Both the position numbers and the translations under genes were made by a program. Shown piece after piece: positions 18,835 through 19,416 of a DNA stretch of 24,800 bases; the stretch's first letter is position 1; each line of letters begins with the position of its first letter. The DNA comes from a virus (taxonomy: Duplodnaviria; Heunggongvirae; Uroviricota; Caudoviricetes), in the IMG/VR virus record IMGVR_UViG_2872192773_000009; one strand, written 5' to 3'. The notes under the pieces are model-generated. The model was given only the letters and a program-made list of their open reading frames with translations. It ran no database searches and was not told the DNA's origin.

Positions 18835-18906
18835 CTGTTTTCTCTGCTGGCGCAGCAGGTGCCAGTTGTTCAGGCTGACGGATGGATTGTAAACCAGAAC
18901 GACCAG

Positions 18907-18931
18907 AAAAAACAAAACCCGCCGAAGCGGG
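18907..18931 (-). terminator. Intrinsic terminator of the hok transcript
   Basis: Minus strand: cccgc-ttcg-gcggg followed by TTTTGTTTTTT, about 70 nt after the hok stop. Confidence 0.5.
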
Positions 18932-19001
18932 TTAAGTGCGGGTGCGTTGAGGATGCCTGACACATCAGCGGTGGCGAGGGATTTCTCCCCCGCCGGGTCT
19001 C

Positions 19002-19157
19002 TTACTCCTCAGGTTCGTAAGCTGTGAAGACAGCGACCTCCGTCTGGCCGGTTCGGATTCGTACCTCGCAGAGGTCTTTCCTCGTTACCAGTGCCGTCAC
19101 TATGACGGTTAAACAGATGACGATAAGGGCGATTAACATCGCCTTTTGCTGCTTCAT
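19002..19157 (-). CDS. hokD: Hok-family type I toxin (HokD/RelF-like), 51 aa
   Basis: MKQQKAMLIALIVICLTVIVTALVTRKDLCEVRIRTGQTEVAVFTAYEPEE, essentially HokD as I recall it. Upstream leader resembles the plasmid R1 hok/mok leader (GGTTAGCCTCTTAC...AAGGAGAAGCAGGCTATG). Confidence 0.85.
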   Translation of the reverse strand: MKQQKAMLIALIVICLTVIVTALVTRKDLCEVRIRTGQTEVAVFTAYEPEE

Positions 19158-19416
19158 AGCCTGCTTCTCCTTGCCTTTCGGCACGTAAGAGGCTAACCTA
19201 CATGTGTTCAGCATGGATTGAGCCTCAGATTAATGTTAAGCGTCTTGCAGGACGCGTAATGTTAACTGGGGCTTTTCTCTATCTGCCTTTTGGTGTTCAT
19301 GCCTGAGACAGATAGCCTCAAGCACCCGCAGTCATTCTACTTAACTAAGATTTCCCTGCAAACCGTTTTTGTCCGGCACAGTAAATATCCAACTAAACCA
19401 ATAGCGTTCGCTGTAT

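Follow-up and report, generated by a model that had tools for sequence, protein, structure and literature searches.

A gene for a small Hok-family toxin, located on the minus strand of a 24,800-nucleotide stretch of viral DNA (Caudoviricetes; hereafter the window), raises two questions. The first is whether it is a hokD gene of the K-12 type, in which hok directly follows relE and lacks a leader, mok and Sok, or part of a complete hok/mok/sok locus. The second is what significance should be attached to a mok reading frame that runs into hok in the same frame. The results described below indicate, with a probability of roughly 0.85, that the locus is an intact, regulated hok/mok/sok type I toxin–antitoxin (TA) module of the hokD/hokW lineage, which would work as in plasmid R1 and phage Sp5.

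The toxin gene itself belongs to the Hok/Gef family, whose toxins have about 50 residues, an N-terminal transmembrane helix and a conserved Cys, and match Pfam PF01848. The hok coding sequence (19002–19157, minus strand) begins at an internal ATG at 19157 and encodes a 51-aa protein, MKQQKAMLIALIVICLTVIVTALVTRKDLCEVRIRTGQTEVAVFTAYEPEE. The list of open reading frames shows a longer frame of 70 codons (mok; 19002–19214, minus strand), whose ATG at 19214 lies 57 nt upstream of the hok ATG, and both frames end at a common stop codon (19004–19002), in agreement with the earlier note, which had described a mok-like start at 19214 in the hok frame and a 70-aa open reading frame. The 70-aa product matches Pfam HOK_GEF over residues 25–66 (E value of 3e-23; 81.6 bits against a cut-off of 22) and PHROG 251, ‘MokW-like host killing' (E value of 8e-33). 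The 51-aa Hok is 100% identical to K-12 HokD, and shares 92% identity with HokW of phage 933W, 82% with HokC and 39% with R1 Hok; residues C15, T17, L29, E31 and E40 are invariant across the eight Hok proteins aligned. Both starts are preceded by ribosome-binding sites. The mok Shine–Dalgarno (SD) sequence GAGG (19223–19226, minus strand; mRNA nt 102–105) is followed after 8 nt by the ATG at 19214, from which the frame stays open past the hok start, and both this SD and the mok AUG are invariant in 68 unique phage relatives. Inspection of the sequence shows the hok SD, AGGAG (19167–19171, minus strand), 9 nt ahead of the hok AUG; it is kept in all five aligned family members.

The hok coding sequence also contains, at Tyr47, a UAC codon followed by G. 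The resulting UACG motif (19016–19019, minus strand) is a candidate site for A-to-I editing by TadA, which would convert Tyr to Cys; the same Tyr47 UACG site of K-12 hokD is edited at ∼6% (PMC5630033, PMC12214031).

The toxin gene is part of a longer transcription unit. A consensus scan places a sigma-70-like hok/mok promoter at 19334–19362 on the minus strand, with a −35 element TTTGCA (19362–19357), a 17-nt spacer and a −10 element TAGAAT (19339–19334), and this promoter ends 7 nt upstream of the point to which nt 1 of the Rfam model RF01794 and +1 of the R1 hok mRNA both align. The RF01794 match itself (19327–19152, minus strand) is full length, covering model positions 1–157 of 157, and scores 118.9 bits (gathering score 59; E value of 7e-28), which places the leader within this curated family. 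At the other end, a terminator scan identifies an intrinsic terminator (18906–18933, minus strand) that consists of a 7-bp stem, AACCCGC/GCGGGUU, at 18933–18916 and a subsequent run of T residues (U in the RNA). With its 5′ end taken from the Rfam and R1 alignment and its 3′ end, which is approximate, from the terminator, the full-length hok mRNA spans 18908–19327 on the minus strand (∼420 nt), and its predicted fold has a minimum free energy (MFE) of −173 kcal/mol, with a z-score of −8.2 relative to shuffled sequences. The downstream terminator noted earlier is confirmed in this way, and the extent proposed for the locus (18905–19300) holds at its lower end (∼18905) but has to be lengthened at the upper one, since the transcript starts at ∼19327 and the promoter reaches 19362. 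An Rfam match to isrK over the hok 3′ untranslated region (UTR), at 27 bits against a gathering score of 50, was dismissed as a resemblance between hairpin-plus-terminator structures.

These elements set the locus apart from its namesake in K-12. In the Qin prophage, K-12 hokD (relF) encodes an identical Hok from a coding sequence that differs by one synonymous base, its 3′ UTR has the same fbi element and terminator, and the downstream region is syntenic with the window (a small ORF, YdfU/DUF968 and Q). However, relE lies 72 nt upstream of K-12 hokD, which has no tac, ucb, mok, dcb, Sok gene or promoter of its own, all of which are present in the window. Homology between the two loci starts only ∼15 nt upstream of the hok ATG, and relE occupies the sequence beyond that point in K-12. 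In the window, hok does not follow relE: it has its own promoter and a 170-nt leader, and relBE is absent from the window, which bears out the earlier view that this is not the 3′ gene of a relBE operon. Among relatives, junctions of the K-12 type are in the minority (2 of 80), and the leader has been lost in 8 of 160.

The genomic setting is that of a prophage in decay. Located in the nin-like region, the cassette is an autonomous module of ∼460 bp (19362–18905, minus strand) within a lambdoid prophage that has decayed, and the host chromosome is Shigella flexneri-like. The window is not of the E. coli K-12 type. A locus of S. flexneri SFBU1023 is 99.76% identical over window positions 16292–24281, and a 30-mer that spans a deletion junction (20226–20255) occurs only in SFBU1023 and in one genome labelled ‘E. 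coli'. The possibility that the window is the prophage of E. coli FDAARGOS_944 was rejected, as that prophage covers only 72% of the window, which has lost the early region. Relative to it, the window lacks ∼9.3 kb containing exonuclease, dicB, relBE, repressor and replication genes, and as a result of this deletion the integrase/tRNA-Ser end abuts the ORF just upstream of hok. Downstream of hok lie a 92-aa ORF, DUF968/HNH, RusA, Q and a tRNA cluster, in an order syntenic with hokD-rem-ydfU-ydfT of K-12 Qin. The region has a match in 4,951 of 5,426 complete E. coli genomes, at a median of two places per genome, and copies of the cassette in other lambdoid phages are 95–97% identical, some of them being annotated as ‘MokW'. 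Homology among the phage copies begins at the hok promoter and ends just after the terminator while the flanks vary, and the cassette therefore behaves as a self-contained moron.

The Rfam family matched by the leader carries the alternative name CssrC, which links the locus to a small RNA (sRNA) of Shigella. A Northern blot of S. flexneri 301 revealed CssrC, an RNA of ∼340 nt encoded between SF2042 and SF2043 (Peng et al. 2011, PMC3071730) and ∼18 kb from CssrB; the two bear the same strand arrow in Table 1 of that study, from which we take them to share a strand. The same arrangement is found in the window, where CssrB lies at 1004–1183 and the RF01794 match at 19152–19327, both on the minus strand. 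CssrC is probably the hok mRNA of this very locus, its strain-301 coordinates being off by ∼230–310 nt, and this identity would account for the hok-sense orientation of the Rfam ‘sok' model match and for its end at the hok AUG. One might argue from the typing of this family as an antitoxin sRNA, and from the report of CssrC as an sRNA, that the region is merely a non-coding sRNA gene devoid of toxin function. We regard such a reading as barely credible, given that the model aligns to the hok-sense strand up to the hok AUG, that a size of ∼340 nt fits a hok mRNA and not a ∼70-nt Sok, and that an intact and strongly conserved Hok ORF directly follows the match.

An antisense gene that faces the mok start is present at the level of sequence. 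The Sok promoter, found by direct reading, lies at 19171–19199 on the plus strand, with a −35 element TTGCCT (19171–19176), a 17-nt spacer and a −10 element TAACCT (19194–19199). The consensus promoter scan missed it, the −10 hexamer matching the consensus at three of six positions; this hexamer is invariant or nearly so in the 68 unique relatives, and the promoter region is identical to that of sokW in Sp5. Coordinates transferred from the sokW annotation of AF125520 place the 71-nt Sok RNA at 19206–19276 on the plus strand. Its predicted fold (−30 kcal/mol; z-score of −5.0) comprises a single-stranded 5′ tail of 14 nt, a long hairpin and a U tail, consistent with a Sok gene, which combines a promoter, an RNA of ∼65–70 nt with a free tail and a terminator hairpin over the mok start. 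The RNA would be complementary to mRNA nt 52–122, including the mok SD and AUG. An opposite-strand Sok region had been proposed at about 19185–19262; the antisense gene is there, but its RNA is better placed at 19206–19276, with the promoter at 19171–19199.

The predicted Sok differs from SokW at a single base (70 of 71 identical), located in the hairpin loop, and the reagents of a published study of Sp5 apply directly to the window. The sokW Northern probe YO-592 (PMC8621323) is an exact match to window positions 19206–19235, the hokW probe of that study also matches exactly, and the mutagenic primers YO-421 and YO-422 (PMC8621323), which match exactly as well, flank the TAACCT hexamer. Takada et al. 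(2021) found that Sp5 hokW is toxic, that sokW expressed from its own promoter neutralises it as a type I TA system that relies on both RNase III and Hfq, that sokW RNA is detectable by Northern blot and that replacement of the TAACCT hexamer abolishes antitoxin activity (PMC8621323).

Regulation of R1 hok depends on alternative pairings within the mRNA, and sequences able to form each of them are present in the window. The tac element (mRNA nt 1–12, GGGUGCUUGAGG; 19316–19327, minus strand) pairs in the MFE structure with nt 376–388, the fbi element (CCUCAACGCACCC; 18940–18952, minus strand), which is complementary to tac apart from one bulged C. This long-range helix of 12 bp with one bulge has a predicted stability of −21.5 kcal/mol and predicted pair probabilities of 0.97–1.0; the earlier note had suggested checking the 3′ end of the mRNA for such fold-back inhibitory elements. 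The tac sequence is invariant in the 68 unique phage copies, and more distant loci keep the pairing with other bases: GGGUGCUUGAGG/CCUCAA(C)GCACCC here, GGCGCUU/AAGCGCC in R1 and GGGUGCCUGAGA/UCUCAUGGCACCC in K-12 hokB, where fbi reads UCUCA(U)GGCACCC. The tac/fbi pairing is in this way maintained by compensatory changes between the window locus, R1 and hokB.

In the same full-length MFE structure, the ucb (anti-SD) element (nt 55–62, AGCCCCAG; 19266–19273, minus strand) pairs with the mok SD region (nt 100–107), and the SD is predicted to be unpaired with a probability of at most 0.03 at three of its four positions, A103 being the unpaired one. The canonical R1 hok mRNA, folded as a control, gives the same closed architecture (tac/fbi and SDmok/ucb). 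An alternative ucb–tac pairing is predicted at −10.7 kcal/mol, and the dcb element (nt 133–139, UAGCCUC; 19189–19195, minus strand) pairs with the mok SD region in a constrained fold; nt 135–139 (GCCUC) and 133 of dcb are invariant in the 68 unique copies, and nt 134 is gapped in five. When the tac–ucb pairing is imposed on the truncated mRNA, the SDmok/dcb hairpin forms at a cost of +1.8 kcal/mol above the MFE (+0.2 kcal/mol in the R1 control). The complementarities for the closed (ucb/SDmok) and the open (tac/ucb plus SDmok/dcb) states thus both exist, and the MFE of the truncated mRNA stays closed: MFE folding of 3′-truncated mRNAs did not yield the published open structure, and the R1 control likewise stays closed. 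A hairpin in the 3′ UTR (GGCGGGGGAGAAAUCCCUCGCC, nt 334–355; 18973–18994, minus strand) is present in every fold and is likely to be the 3′-protective stem-loop of the processed mRNA, because its position is analogous to that of the terminal hairpin of truncated R1 hok mRNA. A search for covariation between the hypervariable segment around the mok start and its MFE partner, nt 356–375, returned no compensatory changes and many broken pairs, and that part of the window-specific MFE is therefore unsupported as a conserved structure.

Alignment to R1 and to other hok loci shows that the hok/mok/sok locus of the window is complete and has its own leader, terminator and antisense gene, as the earlier note had described it; judged by its sequence, the locus is structurally intact and contains all RNA elements of the R1 paradigm. 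The strongest overall similarity is to hokW-mokW-sokW of 933W and Sp5 (AF125520), at 93% nucleotide identity over ∼440 bp, 97% in the leader, 70 of 71 bases in Sok and 92% in Hok. The mokW of 933W has the same in-frame, 70-codon arrangement with a 57-nt offset, and the Sok promoter is the same. HokW differs at four C-terminal residues (TAYEPEE against VDYESEK), and the sequence 3′ of fbi, terminator included, differs too. The two cassettes are also placed differently: that of 933W is found among leftward genes close to the right end of the prophage, unlike that of the window, which sits between an early-region remnant and the DUF968/RusA/Q genes. In K-12, hokC/mokC/sokC (gef) also has mok in frame at 57 nt and shares 82% identity in Hok and 75% in the leader; this locus is chromosomal and outside any prophage, and an IS186 insertion 20 bp downstream of the stop codon disrupts it. 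R1 hok/mok/sok (parB) shares its set of elements and its predicted closed architecture with the window locus, both loci match RF01794 and PF01848, and in both Sok faces the mok start region; nevertheless, Hok is only 39% and the leader 67% identical, the R1 mok is out of frame at an offset of 58 nt, and the R1 locus is plasmid-borne, with post-segregational killing demonstrated. The long leader that had been likened to that of R1 is real, but its closest likeness is to hokW and hokC rather than to R1. The locus is already known: the family has been characterised since the 1980s, and the nearest relative, hokW–sokW, is annotated in 933W and has been validated. A literature search for mokC, orf69 and mokW by name turned up only the mok genes of Monascus.

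By homology with R1 hok/sok and Sp5 hokW/sokW, a scheme for mRNA processing, Sok action, toxicity and biological role may be proposed. A weak constitutive promoter would produce a stable hok mRNA of ∼420 nt, whose full-length form would be closed by tac–fbi pairing, with the mok SD held by ucb, and would be neither translated nor bound by Sok. Slow trimming from the 3′ end would remove fbi and allow the 5′ end to re-pair with ucb, whereupon the mok SD would shift into the dcb hairpin and the message would become both translatable and a target for Sok. The unstable 71-nt Sok, made from the convergent promoter, would use its free 5′ tail to bind the mok start region, block mok translation and trigger cleavage by RNase III. 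Translation of hok would require that ribosomes begin at mok and open up the hok start site, so that Hok, a 51-aa inner-membrane peptide, would be made only once Sok is no longer replenished, and membrane damage would follow. Slow 3′ processing, RNase III cleavage and killing on Sok decay have been shown for R1 and partly for Sp5 (PMC8621323). The module might stabilise the prophage remnant or aid lysis, and the remnant, being without its immunity and replication region, may not share the lysis-assisting role shown for Sp5.

The state of the prophage raises the alternative that the cassette is a silent relic, which is transcribed but no longer kills or is regulated, and which persists pending its loss from the remnant. 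Some ∼9.3 kb, immunity and replication genes included, are indeed gone, related copies carry IS insertions and frameshifts, some relatives have lost the leader as described above, and the chromosomal hok loci of E. coli were reported to be unable to mediate post-segregational killing (Pedersen & Gerdes 1999, as cited in a preprint; see also PMC5630033 and PMC12214031). However, the lesions known to inactivate hok loci are absent from the window: there is no IS element, the leader is not truncated and the hok ORF is intact. In addition, Sok gene, Sok promoter and mok start region match those of the functional Sp5 locus at every position or at 70 of 71, and across relatives divergence is seen in the flanks but not in the regulatory elements. 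A relic is for these reasons unlikely, and an intact, regulated module remains the reading that we prefer.

We now turn to the reading frame of mok. The R1 sequence used for comparison is one that we take to be canonical; IncF plasmids such as pAPEC-O2-R carry it with 100% identity, and it fits the published R1 numbering. In this sequence, mok starts at an AUG at +116 and hok at one at +174; the offset is 58 nt and Mok is a 70-aa out-of-frame product. The earlier note was accordingly right to call R1 mok out of frame, and the offset matches both the numbering and the mutational data in PMC9841398. The opposite conclusion, which pMTY1886_IncFII would have suggested, was rejected: this plasmid encodes a Hok identical to R1 Hok together with a 57-nt in-frame mok, its spacer being 1 nt shorter than that of R1.

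The in-frame arrangement had been considered unusual, a view that the survey contradicts. K-12 mokC and hokC have a common stop codon and a 57-nt offset, the mokA pseudogene of K-12 likewise ends at the hokA stop codon, and mokW and hokW were annotated in frame in 933W, a phage published in 1999; the K-12 mokB offset is 58 nt. Of 160 phage loci in IMG/VR with a Hok identity of at least 92%, 125 have the 57-nt spacing and the 70-aa in-frame ORF. A further 14 have a spacing of 56 nt and a mok of 19 codons whose UGA overlaps the hok AUG (AUGA), 12 have a spacing of 58 nt and an out-of-frame Mok of 68 aa, as in R1, 8 have lost the leader and 1 has no ATG at the mok position. In this branch of the family, a 57-nt in-frame mok is the arrangement met most often, and the mok frame is not conserved among near-identical loci. 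Since three frames occur among such loci, conservation does not extend to the fused product.

This result bears on whether selection acts on the 70-aa Mok–Hok itself, as an extended isoform of the toxin or as a modulator, which would make the locus functionally distinct from those of the R1 type. The in-frame majority (125 of the 151 loci that have both leader and ATG) and the recurrence of the arrangement in mokC and mokW could be taken to favour this idea, but a figure of 83% does not count independent events, as the loci are related by descent. Moreover, with a Hok at least 92% identical, the 14 loci with the shorter spacer end mok after 19 codons over the hok AUG and the 12 with the 58-nt spacer read a 68-aa Mok out of frame; mok codons 2–3 are hypervariable; and in R1, stop codons placed in mok downstream of the hok start leave Hok expression unaffected (Le Rhun et al. 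2022, PMC9841398). A selected fusion is for these reasons improbable. Ribosomes starting at mok would still yield a 70-aa, N-extended Hok, its 19 upstream codons being in frame by chance, and comparison of the loci indicates that the act of mok translation is selected rather than the 70-aa product.

The same set of relatives reveals where the cassette varies. In the 68 unique copies that encode an identical Hok, variation is concentrated in 12 positions that flank the invariant mok AUG, mRNA nt 107–113 and 117–121, which are complementary to the free 5′ tail of Sok. Mean entropy at these 12 positions is 1.11 bits, compared with 0.04 bits at hok third-codon positions, 0.18 bits in the rest of the leader and 0.40 bits in the 3′ UTR, and 26 Sok-tail variants occur among 160 loci with near-identical Hok.

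A tentative explanation, to which we give somewhat less than even odds, is that this hot spot reflects diversifying selection for mutually orthogonal Sok/hok ‘immunity types' among co-resident lambdoid prophages, comparable to the incompatibility switching seen in plasmid antisense RNAs, with the mok frame (56, 57 or 58 nt) as a by-product. Sok tails of co-resident copies differ in three pairs and are identical in one, a sample of only four same-genome pairs for which random expectation is already ∼90% differing.

These observations have consequences for how such loci are annotated and understood. RefSeq gives the identical gene the name hokD and leaves mok and Sok out of the annotation, and the Rfam ‘sok' family models a hok-sense leader, so automated annotation both understates and mislabels the locus. 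The lack of conservation of the mok frame supports the notion that what matters is translation of mok up to the hok start, and not the Mok peptide. By the same comparative data, the Sok recognition tail is the fastest-evolving part of the cassette and, if the proposal of immunity types is true, turnover of the Sok tail would yield the different mok frames (56, 57 or 58 nt) as a side effect.

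At 19152-19327 (-), the hok-sense strand matches the 'sok antitoxin (CssrC)' family of Rfam, and the match ends at the hok AUG. This family is a model of the hok leader rather than of the Sok RNA of about 70 nt, and CssrC of S. flexneri 301, with a length of about 340 nt, is probably the hok mRNA itself. A second RNA family, isrK, gives a sub-threshold match (27 bits, where the gathering score is 50) at 18912-18993 (-), over the hairpin and terminator of the hok 3' UTR, which probably reflects structural resemblance only. The same UTR contains the GTG start of a mechanical 135-aa ORF (18556-18963, -). 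Its overlap with the fold-back inhibitory element (fbi) and terminator of hok is probably non-coding, because both RefSeq and PHROG 1212 favour a shorter form of 92 aa, with ATG 18834 as its start codon.

Upstream, the hok promoter is adjoined by an unannotated ORF of 59 aa (19417-19596, -) that encodes a very hydrophobic product (MKNALQFLFVAFWLF...) and is preceded by a GGGGG SD. Pfam and PHROG yielded no match for this ORF, which shows 93-95% conservation in three E. coli phages. One of these phages has the region labelled 'hypothetical protein' and the other two have it labelled 'hornerin'; in the one 'hornerin' record inspected, the annotated CDS lies on the opposite strand. Comparison with the related prophage of E. 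coli FDAARGOS_944 reveals a deletion junction at 20240-20250 that places the integrase/DUF4224 end next to the ORF that precedes hok. The approximately 9.3 kb absent from the window comprises exonuclease, dicB, relBE, repressor and replication genes, and the 30-mer spanning the junction is present only in S. flexneri SFBU1023 and in one 4.4-Mb genome labelled 'E. coli'. Elsewhere in the window, CssrB (a strong Rfam match, 230 bits) and IS009 (likewise a strong match) are found at 1004-1183 (-) and 44-247 (-). Together with the ipaH-like content of the best-matching genome region, these matches point to a Shigella/EIEC origin. tRNA genes are located at 15945-16251 (-), 21463-21549 (-) and 22541-22613 (+); the prophage carries a cluster of four tRNA genes downstream of a Q-like gene, and mtfA, beyond the integrase, is flanked by tRNA-Ser (the attachment site) and tRNA-Asn.

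Within hok, the codon for Tyr47 forms the TadA A-to-I editing motif, UAC followed by G (19016-19019, -). Editing at the equivalent site of K-12 hokC, hokD and hokE recodes Tyr to Cys. In a DNA-level comparison covering R1 Hok, HokA, HokB, HokC, HokD and HokW, the motif is kept in R1 Hok, HokC, HokD and HokW, all with Tyr at this position, and HokA and HokB encode Cys there.

Among 160 phage loci from IMG/VR with near-identical Hok (at least 92% identity; L011-L090 and L093-L172), the mok-hok spacer measures 57 nt in 125, 56 nt in 14 and 58 nt in 12. With the 56-nt spacer, mok is 19 codons long and its end overlaps hok as AUGA. The R1 spacer is 58 nt long, whereas a plasmid locus with R1-identical Hok (L005, pMTY1886_IncFII, 444-503) has 57 nt. 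A hypervariable hot spot coincides with the positions complementary to the free 5' tail of Sok (window 19206-19221; mRNA nt 107-113 and 117-121), where mean entropy reaches 1.11 bits, as opposed to 0.04 at hok third-codon positions. This segment occurs as 26 variants in the 160 loci. The Sok -10, as well as the SD and start codon of mok, remains invariant. The hypervariability of the Sok tail may result from diversification of Sok specificity.
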